From Lonsdalea iberica (GTDB lineage: Bacteria > Pseudomonadota > Gammaproteobacteria > Enterobacterales > Enterobacteriaceae): a stretch of 64,000 nucleotides of DNA. Made by a program: the position numbers and the translations under genes. Within the stretch, counting starts at the first letter, position 1, and each line of letters starts with the position of its first letter. Location: positions 49,995 through 113,994 of the forward strand of contig NZ_LUTP01000008.1 of the NCBI RefSeq assembly GCF_002111585.1, written 5' to 3'. Of the stretch, positions 57,377 through 61,415 are shown in pieces. The notes beneath the pieces were generated by a model. That model was not told where the DNA came from, ran no database searches, and saw nothing but the letters and a program-made list of their open reading frames with translations.

Positions 57377-58960
57377 TTAACGGTGTTTGACGTCATCCCA
57401 GCATAAAGCGAACCGCGCCAGATATTTGCGCAGCCGGTCGGCGTCATTCGGTTGTTTTTTCTGCTGGCGCGAGACGGCGAAGAGCTGGCGGCCCGCTTCC
57501 GACAAGCTGCTGGCCTGACGGCAAACGTTCAGCACGCTTTCCAACTGGAGGCGGTCAAACAGATCGCAGTCGCCGACGCTCTCCGGCAACGGCGCGCGCT
57601 CGGCGTCGCTGGGCGCCCACTGCCGCTCGAGACGCGAGATTTCTTCGTCGACCAAGGCGGGGGTGATGCGGCCATTATCCGCCAATGTCGCCATTCTAAC
57701 GACGCTGGCGCTCAATTCTCTGAAATTCCCGCGCCACGGAGCGCGCGGCGAGCAGGCGAACCCTAGAAACTGCTGGCGCGCTTCGCGGTCAAAACGGACT
57801 TGCAACAGCTGCGTCTCTGCAAAGCGCTCTAGTTCAAAGTCGATATTGGGCTCGATATCTTCACGTCGCTCCGCCAATCCGGGGAGGGGGAAAGTCCACA
57901 TATTGATGCGGGCATAGAGGTCGTCACGGAAATGGCCTGCGGCGACCCAGCGCGGCATGTCGCGATGCGTACCGGCGATCAGTTGAAAATCGCTGCTGAC
58001 TTCCTTATCCGAACCGAAGGGGAAAAAGGTTTTCTCTTCAACCGCTTTCAACAGCATCGCCTGTTCGTCCAACCCCAGCTCGCCAATTTCATCCAGAAAC
58101 AGGATGCCGCCGTCCGCTTCCCTCAGCAGTCCGGTTCTCGCCTGCTGCGCGCCGGTAAACGCGCCCCGAGCGTGTCCGAACAACGTCGACATCGCATTAT
58201 CTCCTCGCAGCGTCGCGCAGTTGACGGCGACAAAGCGCCCTGAAATCTGATGACGCGCGGCTTTTAATTCGAAGATCCGCCGGGCCAGAAAAGATTTTCC
58301 CGCGCCGGTCGGACCGGTGAGCAACAACGGCGCGGAAGAACGCAGCGCAACACGCTCGATTTGGTCGATCAAGGCATTGTATGCCGCGTTGCGCGTCGCA
58401 ATACCCGCTTTCAAAAACGAGGCCGATTCCTGCTGCTCCCGTTGAAAACGGCTCGTCAGCGTCGCATAACGGCTGAGATCCAAATCGATTATTGAATAAA
58501 CGCCAGCAGGAGAAGGAGGGCCTTCACGGCGGGAAGTCGGACTGGTTTGCAACAGGCTGGCAGGCAGGTAGCGCGCCTCCGTCAGCAGAAACCAACAGAT
58601 CTGCGCGACGTGGGTGCCGGTGGTGATATGGACCAGATACTCTTCGTGCTCCGTGTCGAACGAATAGCGGGCGGCGAAGTCGAGATACGCGGTATAGACC
58701 TCCTCAAAATCCCAGGCATCCCGCAAATCGACGGCATGCAGACGCACTTCCGTGCGGGGCGACAGCGTGGTGATGTCCGCCTGAACCTGTTCCGCCAGAC
58801 CGATATTGCGCGACTGGTACAGTAACTCCAGCCGGTCCACCGGCATGTCCGGTTGTTGGCATAGCGCGACGGTCGGCCGCCATTTATTCCAGCGGTTGGC
58901 CCGTTTGCCGCGCTTATCGAGGACGCTGCCCAGCGTGCCGATCACCACTCTGCGTTTCAT
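57377..58960 (-). CDS. rtcR: sigma54-dependent transcriptional regulator RtcR (CARF - AAA+ - HTH)
   Basis: 527 aa, collinear with E. coli RtcR: N-terminal CARF region (KWRPT...LCQQ), AAA+ Walker A GPTGAGKS, GAFTGA motif. Confidence 0.85.
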   Translation of the reverse strand: MKRRVVIGTLGSVLDKRGKRANRWNKWRPTVALCQQPDMPVDRLELLYQSRNIGLAEQVQADITTLSPRTEVRLHAVDLRDAWDFEEVYTAYLDFAARYSFDTEHEEYLVHITTGTHVAQICWFLLTEARYLPASLLQTSPTSRREGPPSPAGVYSIIDLDLSRYATLTSRFQREQQESASFLKAGIATRNAAYNALIDQIERVALRSSAPLLLTGPTGAGKSFLARRIFELKAARHQISGRFVAVNCATLRGDNAMSTLFGHARGAFTGAQQARTGLLREADGGILFLDEIGELGLDEQAMLLKAVEEKTFFPFGSDKEVSSDFQLIAGTHRDMPRWVAAGHFRDDLYARINMWTFPLPGLAERREDIEPNIDFELERFAETQLLQVRFDREARQQFLGFACSPRAPWRGNFRELSASVVRMATLADNGRITPALVDEEISRLERQWAPSDAERAPLPESVGDCDLFDRLQLESVLNVCRQASSLSEAGRQLFAVSRQQKKQPNDADRLRKYLARFALCWDDVKHR

Positions 58961-59096
58961 GTTTATCCTTATTTATAAATCCTTATCCTTAAGAATAATT
59001 TATTCGTGCATGTTCGAATAGTGCAAGGTAAGCCGATAAAAATAAAAGTCAGTTTTATCAGTAAGTTGAATTTTTATTTGGTGCGGAGCTTCCTGT

Positions 59097-59112
59097 TGGC
59101 ACGCCTTTGGCA
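59097..59112 (+). promoter_or_regulatory. sigma54 (-24/-12) promoter facing the slipin/NTase operon
   Basis: TGGCACGCCTTTGGCA, with GG-N10-GC spacing. Divergent from rtcR and about 350 nt upstream of the first ORF. Confidence 0.6.
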
Positions 59113-59460
59113 ATACCTCAGTCGTCGACAGGTTGATTTCGCAGTGGTTTAGCGCCACGCCGGCATTCAAGGAGCGGTTTCACGCCGCTTTCCGCGGATG
59201 TTCCGTCAGCCCTATCAGACTTGATAAAAGGTTAACTCGGGTTCGACTCCCGAATATCGCACCTCGATATTGATAATGAAAAAAATAACCCTCCCGCCAC
59301 CGGGACGTTGACGGTGGCCTCACGGGAGACCGACCGACGCGCCGGGCGGCAGGCAGAAAGCTGATGCGTTCCTTCAGGAACCCGTGAGCGTTCCCCCTGC
59401 GGCTTCGCCCCGACGTCCGTCTTCACATGTGCCGGAGGGATCATAAGGAGAAACAGAGTC

Positions 59461-60597
59461 ATGTTTAAGACCATCACAATTCGTAAAGGTCAGTTGGGTT
59501 TGGTGAGCCAGGACGGCGATTACCTGCGGGTGTTGGAAGCGGGCCGACACCGCATTCCCTGTTGGTTTAATCGGCAAAAGATCGACGTAGTTTCTTTGGA
59601 TGGGACTGAAGTGTTGGCGCCTTTGGACGACTATCTGCGCCAGTACCATCCGGAGTGGGTAAAACAGTTTTGTTTGGATGTGGTGCTGCCGGAAGAGGCG
59701 ATTGGGCTTCGCTACGACCATGATGTGTTGCAGGAAATCCTGCCGCCCGCCACGCGCCGACTTTACTGGCGTAAAGACGAGCATCAGCGTGTCGAACAGG
59801 TGAAAACCGACGACATCCGGGTGCCGGACGCGCTGGTGTCTGCTCTCTTGCAGCCGACGCTGCGTCAGCGACACGTCATCGGCCATGCCGGCGTCTTGCT
59901 GGCGCAGGTTCCGGCCTGGCATCTCGGCCTCCTGAAGGTGGATGGCGCGGCGCAGGAGCTGTTGCCGCCGGGCGTCAGCGGGTACTGGCGTTTTAATCAC
60001 AGCGTAGAGGTGGAGCTGGTAAACACGCGCCAGCAGGCATTGGAAGTGAGCGGGCAGGAAATTTTGACGCGCGACAAGGTCAATCTTCGGCTGAATCTGG
60101 TGGCGAACTGGCGCTACAGCGACGTTTTGACGGCATTCGGCCAGTTAACGAAACCGGTGGATTCGCTGTACCGCGAGCTTCAGTTCGCGTTACGTGAAGC
60201 GGTGGGAACCCGCACGCTGGATGAACTGTTGGAAAACAAGCACACCATCGATGATCGGGTCAACGCGCAGGTCTGTGAAAAAATGGCCGGTTATGGCATT
60301 GACGTCGTTTCTCTGGGGGTGAAAGACATTGTGTTGCCGGGCGATATGAAAACCATCCTGTCTCAGGTGGTCGAAGCGGAAAAGGCGGCGCAGGCCAACG
60401 TGATACGACGCCGGGAAGAGACGTCGGCGACGCGTTCCCTGTTGAATACCGCCAAAGTGATGGAGAACAACCCGGTCGCCCTGCGCCTGAAAGAGTTGGA
60501 AACGCTGGAGCGCGTAGCAGAGCGCATCGATAAGATTTCCGTGTTTGGCGGATTGGACCAGGTGTTGAACGGGTTGGTGAACTTGAAAGTCGCATAG
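59461..60597 (+). CDS. SPFH/band-7 (slipin-like) domain protein, soluble, with about 170-aa uncharacterised N-terminal domain
   Basis: 378 aa. C-terminal stomatin/prohibitin-like region (VNLRLNLVANWRY...DVVSLGVKDIVLPGDMKTILSQVVEAEKAAQANVIRRREETSA...). No TM segment. AGGAG Shine-Dalgarno. Confidence 0.7.
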   Translation: MFKTITIRKGQLGLVSQDGDYLRVLEAGRHRIPCWFNRQKIDVVSLDGTEVLAPLDDYLRQYHPEWVKQFCLDVVLPEEAIGLRYDHDVLQEILPPATRRLYWRKDEHQRVEQVKTDDIRVPDALVSALLQPTLRQRHVIGHAGVLLAQVPAWHLGLLKVDGAAQELLPPGVSGYWRFNHSVEVELVNTRQQALEVSGQEILTRDKVNLRLNLVANWRYSDVLTAFGQLTKPVDSLYRELQFALREAVGTRTLDELLENKHTIDDRVNAQVCEKMAGYGIDVVSLGVKDIVLPGDMKTILSQVVEAEKAAQANVIRRREETSATRSLLNTAKVMENNPVALRLKELETLERVAERIDKISVFGGLDQVLNGLVNLKVA

Positions 60598-60632
60598 CGC
60601 GCGGCGACGTTTCAAAAAAGGAGGAGAGGGAT

Positions 60633-61415
60633 ATGACATTGGCATCTCAGGGCGTTAGCGAAAAAATGAAACATCAGATCAACGCGGCGCTGGACGAAGT
60701 GGAAGGGGAGTTCGATGTCCGCATCCTGTATGCCTGCGAGTCCGGTAGCCGCGGCTGGGGATTCGCCTCGCCAGACAGTGATTATGATGTCCGATTTATC
60801 TACGTTCATCCGCCGGAGTGGTATCTGCGGGTTGAACCGCAGCGTGATGTCATCGAACGTCCGCTGACGGCGGAGTTGGACGTGTGCGGTTGGGAACTGC
60901 GAAAGGCGTTAGCGCTATTGAACCGGGGCAATCCCACGATGATCGAATGGCTGGATTCGCCGGTGGCCTATCGGCAGGACGACATGGCGACAGACCGGCT
61001 GCGGCAGTTGATCCCCGACTGCTTTTCCGCGCTCAAGGCGAGTCATCATTATCTCTCCATCGCGCGTAAAAATTTCCGGACCTATTTGCTGGGTGAGCGT
61101 GTGCGGCTGAAAAAGTATTTTTACGTCCTTCGCTCGCTGCTCGCAGTGCAGTGGATTGCCGAGGGGAAGGGGGCGCCGCCCATGCAGTTCGAGGTGTTAC
61201 TGAACGCGATGGTAACGGATCCTGCGTTGCTGGAGGAGGTTCGCGCGTTGTTGAAACTGAAATGCAGCGCGGTGGAAACGGATACGGTAGAGCGGCAACC
61301 GCATATCCACGCGTTTATCGTACGATCGCTGGAAACCGTGACGGTGACCTCGCAACCGGCGAAGGACAAACGCATCAATGCCGCGTTGGATCGGCTGTTT
61401 TATGAGGGCATCTAA
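60633..61415 (+). CDS. minimal nucleotidyltransferase (Pol-beta superfamily, PF10127-like, the family annotated as RNA-repair-associated NTase)
   Basis: 260 aa. ILYACESGSRGWGFASPDSDYDVRFIY matches the GS...D.D NTase active site. GGAGAGGG Shine-Dalgarno. Confidence 0.7.
   Translation: MTLASQGVSEKMKHQINAALDEVEGEFDVRILYACESGSRGWGFASPDSDYDVRFIYVHPPEWYLRVEPQRDVIERPLTAELDVCGWELRKALALLNRGNPTMIEWLDSPVAYRQDDMATDRLRQLIPDCFSALKASHHYLSIARKNFRTYLLGERVRLKKYFYVLRSLLAVQWIAEGKGAPPMQFEVLLNAMVTDPALLEEVRALLKLKCSAVETDTVERQPHIHAFIVRSLETVTVTSQPAKDKRINAALDRLFYEGI

Follow-up and report, generated by a model that had tools for sequence, protein, structure and literature searches.

A probable ligase-less derivative of the RtcR-controlled Band-7 RNA-repair operon, with a structured leader RNA, in Lonsdalea iberica

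The module described here lies in a 64-kb window (the whole stretch of Lonsdalea iberica DNA that was analysed, 64,000 nt), in the chromosomal slot rlmJ-rbn...gor. On the minus strand, rtcR (57377-58960) encodes a 527-aa protein with a CARF sensor domain, an AAA+ sigma54 activator domain and an HTH. It is separated by 500 bp from the plus-strand gene for a soluble SPFH/Band-7 protein of 378 aa, the slipin (59461-60597), which is followed by rlaP (60633-61415, plus strand), a gene for a 260-aa nucleotidyltransferase of the Pol-beta type (PF10127), and then by gor (61582-62934). A first-pass annotation had described an RtcR with a divergent sigma54 promoter facing a slipin-nucleotidyltransferase pair, with rtcB and rtcA missing and gor next; all of these features are in place, and tblastn found no homologue of RtcB or RtcA anywhere in the window. 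The slipin of L. quercina is found on 23 contigs, where the three loci displayed have the gene order of the window and 14 further similar places are reported, and the arrangement also occurs in a Brenneria bubanii genome, so it is not an assembly artefact.

The regulator is assigned to the RtcR family by Pfam (RtcR, E 1.4e-83; Sigma54_activat, E 1.2e-48) and by the NCBIfam equivalog RNA_repair_RtcR (NF038308; 837 bits, cut-off 650). A -24/-12 promoter, TGGCACGCCTTTGGCA (59097-59112, plus strand), is situated 349 nt 5′ of the slipin ATG and has one mismatch to TGGCAC-N5-TTGCW. One such match per 64 kb would be expected by chance alone; a sigma54 element is present at the equivalent position, 310-600 nt 5′ of slipin, in all RtcR-linked loci examined.

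The 349-nt leader contains a conserved structured RNA in which a three-way junction is followed by a tRNA T-arm and, nearer the 3′ end, by a long hairpin. Both this RNA, a defining part of the system, and the length of the intergenic region had been overlooked in the first-pass annotation. Domain I (59132-59210, plus strand) is the junction, formed by P1 (59132-36/59206-10), the P2 hairpin (59141-59160) and the long P3/P4 hairpin (59161-59205). The T-arm TCGGG-TTCGACT-CCCGA (59237-59253, plus strand), a recognisable remnant of the Band-7-associated tRNA-like RNA, is directly followed by a further hairpin (59254-59270, plus strand). The 3′ domain (59328-59421, plus strand) is a long interrupted hairpin that stops some 25 nt short of the Shine-Dalgarno sequence of slipin (59445-59450). 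Across 16 enterobacterial leaders, RNAalifold gives a fold of 46 pairs, 33 with compensatory (double) changes compared with 7-12 in slid controls, and the structure is 92% paired as against 39-49% in the controls. Helices 1-4 are 91-98% paired in these leaders, with changes on both sides in 19 of their 23 pairs, and helices 6-7 show the same in 12 of 18. The 3′ hairpin is also kept in loci of Pseudomonas, Burkholderia and Rhodocyclales, with compensatory change in 18 of 22 pairs. The leader RNA has no counterpart in Rfam and does not match the Rfam YrlA model.

In Pseudomonas and betaproteobacteria, one or two abutting tRNAs are called at the leader position by ARAGORN and Rfam. A b7a-tRNA covariance model built from these calls recognised loci that had been kept out of its construction (E 1e-9 to 1e-22). 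In the window it matched the T-arm alone (15.6 bits, E 4e-5 in 501 nt), while a sister genome (L001, 21.4 bits) and the Brenneria leader were matched over the full length. The T-arm could be aligned in all 16 enterobacterial leaders, and a strict motif scan places it, with compensatory stem changes, 5′ of slipin in most of 80 related loci. Since the tRNA-like unit of the window is degraded to this arm and is called neither by the Rfam tRNA model nor by ARAGORN, it may have ceased to mimic a tRNA. On the other side of rtcR, 19 nt downstream and on the same strand, is rbn (RNase Z/BN; 56443-57357, minus strand; 304 aa), which scores 501 bits against the NCBIfam RNase Z equivalog (cut-off 398). 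The two genes are also neighbours in Brenneria, Erwinia, Proteus and Providencia; the Variovorax operon has an MBL gene inside it. Rbn is possibly an associated component that would trim the tRNA-like RNA at its 3′ end.

The slipin carries a Band_7 domain at residues 149-320 (Pfam, E 6e-30) and has no hydrophobic or transmembrane segment, the top Kyte-Doolittle 19-residue mean being 1.27. Its AF2 model comprises an N-terminal beta-rich domain (1-140), an SPFH domain (~145-290) and long C-terminal helices. The earlier description of a soluble SPFH protein of 378 aa that carries an additional domain at its N-terminus therefore stands, except that this domain measures about 140 aa rather than some 170. 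Foldseek matches the model to stomatin and HflK/C (E 1e-13 to 1e-10), prohibitin and the major vault protein (MVP). Like its relatives, the slipin probably assembles into a large ring or cage. The likeness to the vault particle (MVP plus vault RNA) extends to predicted N-terminal repeats rich in beta structure, a ‘shoulder’ made by the SPFH domain and a long helix, as well as to solubility and a genomically linked small structured RNA. The MVP alignment spans 420-470 columns at E about 1e-8 with low TM-scores (~0.3), and the Pfam Vault repeat is not found in the slipin. The resemblance is an architectural analogy rather than established homology, in which oligomerisation and RNA binding of the slipin are predictions. 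Deletion of PaFlo8, the slipin orthologue of Pseudomonas aeruginosa, gave no phenotype in generic assays.

The nucleotidyltransferase, previously placed in the PF10127 type, is a true RlaP: it covers the whole profile (E 2.6e-92), and the residues of its motif G38-S39-x8-D48-x-D50-x-D52, together with D83, are invariant among 16 RlaPs. Pseudomonas RlaP orthologues add 1-2 NMP to the 3′-OH ends of RNA; on damaged RNA the activity is limited to these 1-2 nucleotides and helps to restore tRNA function, and the product is a 3′-OH end that RtcB cannot join (bioRxiv 10.64898/2025.12.29.696909).

Operons that combine Band-7, a b7a-tRNA and RtcB, with or without RlaP and RtcA, go back to a prediction of Burroughs and Aravind 2016, cited and summarised in bioRxiv 10.1101/312249; the b7a-tRNA beside RtcB is a computational prediction. 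Pseudomonas aeruginosa rtcR-paFlo8-rtcB-rlaP-rtcA (PMC13086221; bioRxiv 10.64898/2025.12.29.696909) is one example, and locus L015 of this analysis is another. When the 80 loci were recovered by slipin and their neighbours annotated by tblastn, most showed a divergent sigma54 promoter between rtcR and the tRNA-like RNA, followed by slipin, rtcB and, in part, rlaP and rtcA. Slipin and the nucleotidyltransferase, formerly taken for non-canonical effectors ‘instead of rtcBA’, are thus regular members of a predicted operon type; in most of the 80 loci rtcB is present, either between these two genes or behind them. The window shares with this type orthologous RtcR (~69% identity), slipin (61%) and RlaP (53%), the divergent sigma54 promoter, a T-arm-bearing structured RNA between promoter and slipin, and the 3′ leader hairpin. 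It differs in lacking rtcB and rtcA, in the rbn that adjoins rtcR, and in a diverged three-way-junction RNA with one T-arm where the others have two near-canonical tandem tRNA-like genes. The operon type was known as a prediction; what is new is a ligase-deleted form that is still kept by selection.

The module derives secondarily from a slipin-rtcB-rlaP operon by deletion of the ligase gene. Erwinia sp. Eh17-17 has rlmJ-rbn-rtcR-slipin-rtcB-rlaP-gor in the very same slot, with the same gene order and leader RNA family, but with a 1.2-kb rtcB where the window has a 35-bp spacer; rtcB has therefore been deleted in the window. Within Enterobacterales the ligase has been lost at least five times: in Lonsdalea/Brenneria, in the Klebsiella oxytoca group with Citrobacter, in Hafnia, in Superficieibacter and in Mangrovibacter. 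K. aerogenes and K. oxytoca share a slot that contains rtcB in the former species and lacks it in the latter. In Phytobacter, rtcB is flanked by a 9-bp direct repeat, AAAGGATAA, of which one copy is left at the Klebsiella/Citrobacter junction; the 35-bp slipin-rlaP junction of the window is unrelated to it. These differing junctions, and the dispersal of the RtcB-less lineages over the slipin NJ tree, indicate that the losses were independent.

In RtcB-less pairs, dN/dS is 0.07-0.12 for rtcR, 0.06-0.11 for slipin and 0.06-0.20 for rlaP, similar to flanking housekeeping genes. Such purifying selection implies that the unit of RNA, SPFH protein and RlaP must be useful without a ligase encoded in cis. 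The locus is thus probably a ligase-less, still functional derivative of an RtcR-controlled Band-7/SPFH - b7a-tRNA - RtcB - RlaP RNA-repair operon, in keeping with the earlier reading of a sigma54-type unit that responds to RNA damage. By extension from Salmonella RtcR, whose CARF domain senses broken tRNAs (PMC7790460), such tRNAs would be the ligand that leads RtcR to switch on the divergent promoter. The transcript would begin with the 349-nt leader, apparently descended from the tandem b7a-tRNA genes of Pseudomonas and betaproteobacteria, and encode the SPFH protein and RlaP downstream. The SPFH protein, as a probable ring or cage, may associate with the leader RNA as a scaffold, and RlaP would add one or two nucleotides to the 3′-OH ends of damaged RNA, its presumed substrate in the cell. 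Scaffolded nucleotidylation of this kind is a reasonable candidate mechanism. The rtcB gene, ancestrally between slipin and rlaP, was deleted in Lonsdalea/Brenneria, and at least four further lineages of enterobacteria lost it independently. RtcR activation requires RtcA in Salmonella (PMC7790460) and is reported to need RtcA and RtcB in E. coli (PMC9650030); as both are missing here, induction may work differently or fail.

It is very unlikely that the operon is a remnant, non-functional since the ligase was lost and merely not yet eroded. The central catalytic component found in canonical operons is gone, the tRNA-like RNA of the window is degenerate, and the corresponding slot of Affinibrenneria has decayed further, to slipin alone. 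However, all three reading frames are intact, dN/dS remains at 0.06-0.20 in several RtcB-less pairs at dS up to 1.6, and at least five independent lineages have retained the rtcR-RNA-slipin-rlaP set, with invariant RlaP catalytic residues and leader helices that still covary among RtcB-less genomes. A possible though less favoured explanation is that slipin, leader RNA and RlaP still take part in ligation repair, completed by an RNA ligase elsewhere in the genome (RtcB or a 5′-phosphate ligase), the lost rtcB having been a redundant copy. Affinibrenneria salicis has rtcR-rtcB-rlaP at one locus and promoter, leader RNA and slipin without rtcR in the rlmJ-gor slot, which shows that the parts can work across loci; RlaP also occurs alongside several ligase families (bioRxiv 10.64898/2025.12.29.696909), and many enterobacteria have rtcB. 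Against this stand the inability of RtcB to join the end left by RlaP, the 64 kb without RtcB or RtcA and, as weak evidence, the absence of any Lonsdalea or Brenneria RtcB among the best 120 matches listed to either Erwinia or Affinibrenneria RtcB; these extend down to ~77-79% identity, with Dickeya, Pectobacterium and Affinibrenneria represented.

A role in defence or abortive infection, in which an infection signal would act through the RtcR CARF domain and lead RlaP and slipin to alter or sequester RNA of the host or the phage and block phage growth, is improbable. CARF sensors are a typical feature of CRISPR-linked defence, phage T4 has an RlaP homologue, NrdC.11 (bioRxiv 10.64898/2025.12.29.696909), and the island bears signs of lateral exchange, its chromosomal slot differing between genera. 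Although the PADLOC RtcR model is matched (E 8e-263), PADLOC gives no match for slipin, RlaP or rbn, so the anti-phage reading proposed earlier finds no support there. Furthermore, a toxin-like effector is absent, the closest relatives are repair operons with a ligase, and the measured RlaP activity, 1-2 nucleotides onto damaged RNA, aids tRNA function.

The preferred reading, a repair operon that has lost its ligase, can also be set beside the E. coli rtcR-rtcBA and Salmonella rtcR / rsr-yrlB-yrlA-rtcBA systems, which share the RtcR regulator and sigma54 promoter. The Salmonella layout is parallel, with a scaffold-like Rsr/Ro60 protein and tRNA-mimicking ncRNAs (YrlA) ahead of the enzymes. 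Unlike these operons, the window has no ligase, cyclase or Ro60, and its putative scaffold is an SPFH rather than a TROVE protein; in E. coli genomes an 87-nt stretch of rtcR is the sole part in common with the region. Just 3′ of the rlaP stop lies a GC-rich hairpin (GCGAGGCC...GGCCTCGC; 61422-61446, plus strand; fold -21.9 kcal/mol). It has no T-run after it and received no call in a terminator scan; it is kept in the sister genome and is the probable end of the operon.

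The rtcR gene (57377-58960, minus strand) encodes a 527-aa protein with the CARF, AAA+ sigma54-interaction and HTH regions of an RtcR regulator (Pfam RtcR, E 1.4e-83; Sigma54_activat, E 1.2e-48), and the protein scores 837 bits against the NCBIfam RtcR equivalog model, for which the cut-off is 650. The 500-bp intergenic region between rtcR and the slipin gene contains a predicted sigma54 -24/-12 element, TGGCACGCCTTTGGCA, divergent from rtcR on the plus strand at 59097-59112 and 349 nt before the slipin ATG. A single match per 64 kb is within chance expectation for this element, but all RtcR-linked relatives compared have the element at the corresponding place. 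The slipin gene (59461-60597, plus strand) encodes a soluble SPFH protein of 378 aa with a Band_7 domain at residues 149-320 (Pfam E 6e-30). Its stop codon lies 35 bp before the start of rlaP (60633-61415, plus strand), which encodes a 260-aa nucleotidyltransferase that matches PF10127 over positions 1-248 of the 249 in the profile (E 2.6e-92), and gor follows from 61582. The ORFs and profile matches thus bear out the gene calls of the first-pass annotation (RtcR, a 378-aa SPFH protein, a 260-aa nucleotidyltransferase, then gor), as well as its statement that RtcB and RtcA are absent: tblastn found no homologue of either in the 64-kb window. The gene order is the same in the Lonsdalea quercina loci shown and in Brenneria bubanii, so the arrangement is not an artefact. 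L. quercina carries the slipin on 23 contigs, with DNA about 89-92% identical to the window and a slipin that is 96% identical. A scan against terminator and sigma70 promoter consensus patterns showed no signal beyond background overall; a minus-strand terminator-like hairpin with a T-run lies inside the leader at 59292-59305 (TCCCGGTGGCGGGA GGGTTATTTT).

The slipin and the nucleotidyltransferase had been taken for non-canonical effectors that replace rtcBA, and a wider survey does not support this claim. A search with the slipin returned 576 relatives in species-representative genomes, and the best 80 of these 576 loci were kept and annotated by tblastn with RtcR, slipin, RlaP, RtcB and RtcA as queries. 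Most of them carry rtcB, in a layout where rtcR is divergent across a sigma54 promoter from slipin, rtcB and, variably, rlaP and rtcA; a Pseudomonas locus (L015), its products confirmed with Pfam, is an example. The window slipin is 53-94% identical over its full length to the slipins of the 80 loci, most of which adjoin RtcR and RtcB, and it also has the N-terminal domain specific to the family of rtc-linked slipins. Slipin and RlaP are therefore known companions of RtcB and not its substitutes. The RtcB-type rtc layout with RlaP has been reported in P. aeruginosa and P. fluorescens (bioRxiv 10.64898/2025.12.29.696909), and a 2026 survey of SPFH proteins locates PaFlo8, a P. aeruginosa slipin, within the rtc locus (PMC13086221). 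A 2018 preprint credits the prediction of the arrangement of Band-7 protein, Band-7-associated tRNA-like RNA (b7a-tRNA), RtcB and RlaP to Burroughs and Aravind (2016) (bioRxiv 10.1101/312249). This branch of bacterial RNA repair is a computational prediction only.

The Band-7/b7a-tRNA/RtcB/RlaP operon is the closest known system to the window, which shares its regulator, promoter, Band-7 protein and RlaP but has no RNA ligase in the operon, and is therefore a derivative of that system and not a full member. With the canonical RtcR-RtcBA operon the window shares RtcR and the divergent sigma54 promoter, but it lacks the RtcB 3'-phosphate RNA ligase and the RtcA cyclase; rtcA is also missing from the RtcB-containing enterobacterial slipin operons. 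The rsr-yrlBA-rtcBA operon of Salmonella is built along parallel lines, in that genes for a scaffold protein and tRNA-mimic RNAs precede those for the enzymes, although its parts are not homologous to those of the window. While the 2026 P. aeruginosa survey reported PaFlo8-type proteins as absent from Enterobacterales (PMC13086221), at least a dozen enterobacterial genera have orthologues about 60% identical to the Pseudomonas slipins. In complete E. coli genomes, megablast found only 87 nt of rtcR in common with the window, so no E. coli carries the module at that sensitivity.

Several genomic comparisons indicate how the ligase was lost. In Erwinia sp. Eh17-17 (L002) the order is rlmJ-rbn-rtcR-slipin-rtcB-rlaP-gor, which is the slot of the window with rtcB present. 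In K. aerogenes, slipin-rtcB-rlaP is flanked by an SBF transporter gene and lysC, and the K. oxytoca slot with these flanks contains slipin-rlaP. In the operons of Phytobacter and a related MAG (L004 9114 and 10346; L008 9117 and 10348; L009 4295 and 5526), a 9-mer, AAAGGATAA, marks the stop of slipin and, 1,232 bp further on, that of rtcB. Where slipin meets rlaP in K. oxytoca, Klebsiella MISC125 and Citrobacter (L003, L006, L010), a single copy is present. This single copy is plausibly the footprint of a deletion of rtcB between short direct repeats. The slipin-rlaP junction of the window is unrelated to that of Klebsiella and Citrobacter, so rtcB was lost separately there, and the chromosomal context of rtcR-slipin-rlaP in Hafnia is different again. 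In a neighbor-joining tree of the slipins, the RtcB-less lineages (Lonsdalea/Brenneria; the Klebsiella oxytoca group with Citrobacter; Superficieibacter; Mangrovibacter; Hafnia) are scattered among RtcB-containing ones, which points to at least five losses. No Lonsdalea or Brenneria RtcB is among the best 120 matches listed for each of two enterobacterial RtcB queries (down to about 77-79% identity); other Pectobacteriaceae RtcBs do occur among the best 120 listed per query. Other parts of the system can also be missing or displaced. Proteus has kept rtcB and has no rlaP, and in Affinibrenneria salicis (L081, L082) the regulon is split over two loci: one is rtcR-rtcB-rlaP without slipin, and the other, in the rlmJ-rbn...gor slot, has the sigma54 promoter, leader RNA and slipin without rtcR or rlaP. 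Beside the K. oxytoca slipin-rlaP pair, a lysine riboswitch (Rfam RF00168, 91 bits; L003 12575-12808, minus strand) lies upstream of lysC and is unrelated to the module.

The genes that remain evolve much like housekeeping genes. In comparisons of RtcB-less pairs, rtcR has a dN/dS of 0.07-0.12, slipin one of 0.06-0.11 and rlaP one of 0.06-0.20, with dS of up to 1.6, and the neighboring housekeeping genes gor and rlmJ lie at 0.08-0.10; this similarity is evidence against a decaying relic. Between the window and Brenneria bubanii, dS is 0.38-0.50 in rbn, rtcR, slipin and rlaP but 1.1-1.2 in the flanking rlmJ and gor, and DNA identity (window 55555-62930 against L001 4095-11490) is 0.86-0.91 in the island and 0.73-0.82 in the flanks. 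The lower dS and higher identity suggest that the block from rbn to rlaP was exchanged more recently than its surroundings. What is new here is the repeated loss of the ligase with conservation of the other parts, together with a diverged enterobacterial leader RNA.

Whereas typical SPFH/stomatin proteins have a membrane anchor, in the form of an N-terminal transmembrane segment or hairpin, the window slipin has no hydrophobic segment, with a highest Kyte-Doolittle 19-residue mean of 1.27. The AF2 model (mean pLDDT 70) contains a beta-rich soluble N-terminal domain, predicted at pLDDT 83-91 over residues 1-130, followed by the SPFH domain and long C-terminal helices of low confidence. Together with the Band_7 match, this upholds the earlier description of a soluble SPFH protein with an additional N-terminal domain. 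Foldseek matched the model to stomatin, HflK/C, prohibitin and erlin (E 1e-13 to 1e-8), and aligned 420-470 columns to major vault protein chains (E about 1e-8). Residues 71-140 and 141-215 are 37% identical (E 3e-6), and a degenerate internal duplication is the best reading of the N-terminal domain. A second copy of this domain is found in slipins of about 510-535 aa from Xenorhabdus, Providencia, Snodgrassella, Gilliamella and one Burkholderia (P0004, P0013, P0112; L029, L039, L049, L052, L071), and proteins with two to six copies exist in the representative library. The domain family is small: in a set of 1.84 billion proteins, 102 representative clusters match it at E <= 1e-3.

In most of the 80 loci, the region upstream of slipin features one or two copies of a T-arm motif, GGTTCGAnTCC, with a 5-bp stem that shows compensatory changes. 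For Pseudomonas and many betaproteobacteria, ARAGORN predicts a cloverleaf, or two that abut, in this region, and a 6-nt anticodon loop is frequent; the same elements reach 48-58 bits with the Rfam tRNA model. At L015 7572-7717, at L043 7607-7749 and at similar Pseudomonas loci, slipin is preceded by a pair of tRNA-like genes that abut directly, several of them with 6-nt anticodon loops. The junction of the tandem Pseudomonas genes gives a sub-threshold Rfam match to YrlA (33 bits against a gathering score of 69), and the YrlA authors warned of such matches at dimeric tRNAs. A covariance model of the slipin-proximal tRNA-like unit, built on 41 sequences, recovers held-out loci at E 1e-9 to 1e-22. 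Enterobacteria fit this model poorly: Brenneria (L001) gives a full-length but weak match of 21.4 bits, and the window matches through the T-arm alone (59236-59253; 15.6 bits, E 4e-5 in 501 nt). The slot for the tRNA-like RNA is conserved in the window in both position and strand. Six loci (L032, L037, L055, L057, L072, L080) have an extra T-arm element, GCGGGTTCGAGTCCCGC, between slipin and rtcB, about 1.34-1.58 kb after the slipin start; in these betaproteobacterial loci the slipin-rtcB spacer is 300-900 bp.

Rfam gave no match in 55000-64000 at E <= 1, including YrlA (RF02553), and ARAGORN found nothing in the window leader, which rules out a standard tRNA or YrlA; a gene for Rsr (Ro60) is absent from the window. 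One cloverleaf-like fold can be drawn locally around the T-arm, but it was rejected, since L. quercina does not conserve the stem that closes it. The single-sequence fold of the leader is barely above shuffles (z -1.97), and its structure is therefore shown by covariation instead. Alignment of 16 enterobacterial leaders yields a different, strongly supported fold with a three-way junction, in which P1 (59132-36/59206-10) encloses the P2 hairpin (59141-60) and the long P3/P4 hairpin (59161-59205); the T-arm (59237-53) comes next, and an interrupted hairpin lies toward the 3' end (59328-59421). In this fold 92.4% of cells pair, compared with 39-49% when the partners are slid by one to three columns, and both sides have changed in 33 of the 46 pairs, where the slid controls give 7-12 such pairs and shuffles 17. 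Pseudomonas, Burkholderia and Rhodocyclales conserve the 3' hairpin too, with compensatory changes in 18 of 22 pairs, and the leader is retained with or without rtcB. By this comparative evidence the enterobacterial leader, which the first-pass annotation had missed, is a well-supported structured RNA outside Rfam that could become a family. Slipin loci without an adjacent RtcR have no sigma54 promoter; in its place, about 540-580 nt before slipin, they have in common another conserved motif, TGGC(C/T)(G/T)CGCGCCTGCC (L024, L030, L035, L046, L054, L062, L065, L076, L079), which hints at another mode of regulation or at a piece of the first RNA unit.

The Pol-beta GS...DxD motif of RlaP is intact, with G38, S39, D48, D50, D52 and D83 invariant among 16 RlaPs; a PDB sequence search with RlaP gave no match. 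The RlaPs of P. fluorescens and P. aeruginosa extend damaged RNAs at the 3'-OH by one or two NMPs and help to restore aminoacylation of over-trimmed tRNA, and the resulting 3'-OH product is, according to the authors, no substrate for RtcB (bioRxiv 10.64898/2025.12.29.696909). This measured product is at odds with the substrate needs of RtcB, and by analogy it fits a role of the window RlaP that would be independent of RtcB. As far as comparative genomics goes, the recurrent ligase-less operons show that the unit of RNA, SPFH protein and RlaP is selected for on its own.

A working scheme for the locus can be proposed, in which the first two steps, up to the transcript and its products, follow from homology. 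The ligand of Salmonella RtcR is 5' tRNA fragments that end in a 2',3'-cyclic phosphate (PMC7790460), and the CARF domain of the window RtcR would bind such fragments, after which the ligand-bound protein would oligomerize and switch on the sigma54 promoter. The transcript would give the structured leader RNA, slipin and RlaP. It is proposed that slipin assembles into a soluble ring or cage with the leader RNA held in it, and this complex would present broken RNAs to RlaP for 3'-end extension; any joining step would require a ligase encoded elsewhere. Activation of RtcR reportedly needs RtcA and RtcB in E. coli (PMC9650030) and RtcA in Salmonella (PMC7790460), though neither protein is encoded in the window. 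Independent losses of RtcB, repeated while the other parts were strictly kept, may mean that RtcR, a tRNA-derived leader RNA, a soluble SPFH protein and RlaP make up an autonomous ribonucleoprotein machine. In this machine an SPFH cage with a tRNA-like RNA, a counterpart of the vault by architectural analogy, would capture broken tRNAs for RlaP to rebuild or tag at their 3' ends without ligation, and the ligase would be an optional add-on; we consider this reading unlikely, if conceivable. If the cage-plus-RNA reading is true, it would tie bacterial RNA repair to vault-like particles. The locus had also been read as a possible anti-phage module, a reading that finds no support, as PADLOC models match only RtcR, through a CARF regulator model, and give no match for slipin, RlaP or the rbn product. 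The components are already known to specialists, and for the Band-7/b7a-tRNA system the ligase-less form is useful as a natural experiment: its operons are natural ligase 'knock-outs', recurrent in Lonsdalea, Hafnia, the Klebsiella oxytoca group and Citrobacter, which narrow the hypotheses on the roles of the RNA, the SPFH protein and RlaP and offer tractable enterobacterial hosts.

Other genes recur at these loci as well. An rbn gene (RNase Z/BN; 56443-57357, minus strand) has the orientation of rtcR and follows it after 19 nt, and the rbn-rtcR adjacency is repeated in Brenneria, Erwinia, Proteus and Providencia even with different outer flanks (L001, L002, L011, L013, L014, L017, L081). A possible role of its product is 3'-end processing of the tRNA-like leader RNA. 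Extra genes also occur between rtcB and rlaP (L045 10850-12229; L057 10898-12310; L066 10431-11786; L015 10794-11372): Pseudomonas has a 192-aa protein without a Pfam match, some operons encode a HEAT-repeat protein of about 455 aa, and the Variovorax operon has an MBL-fold gene in this place (L072 12136-13158).
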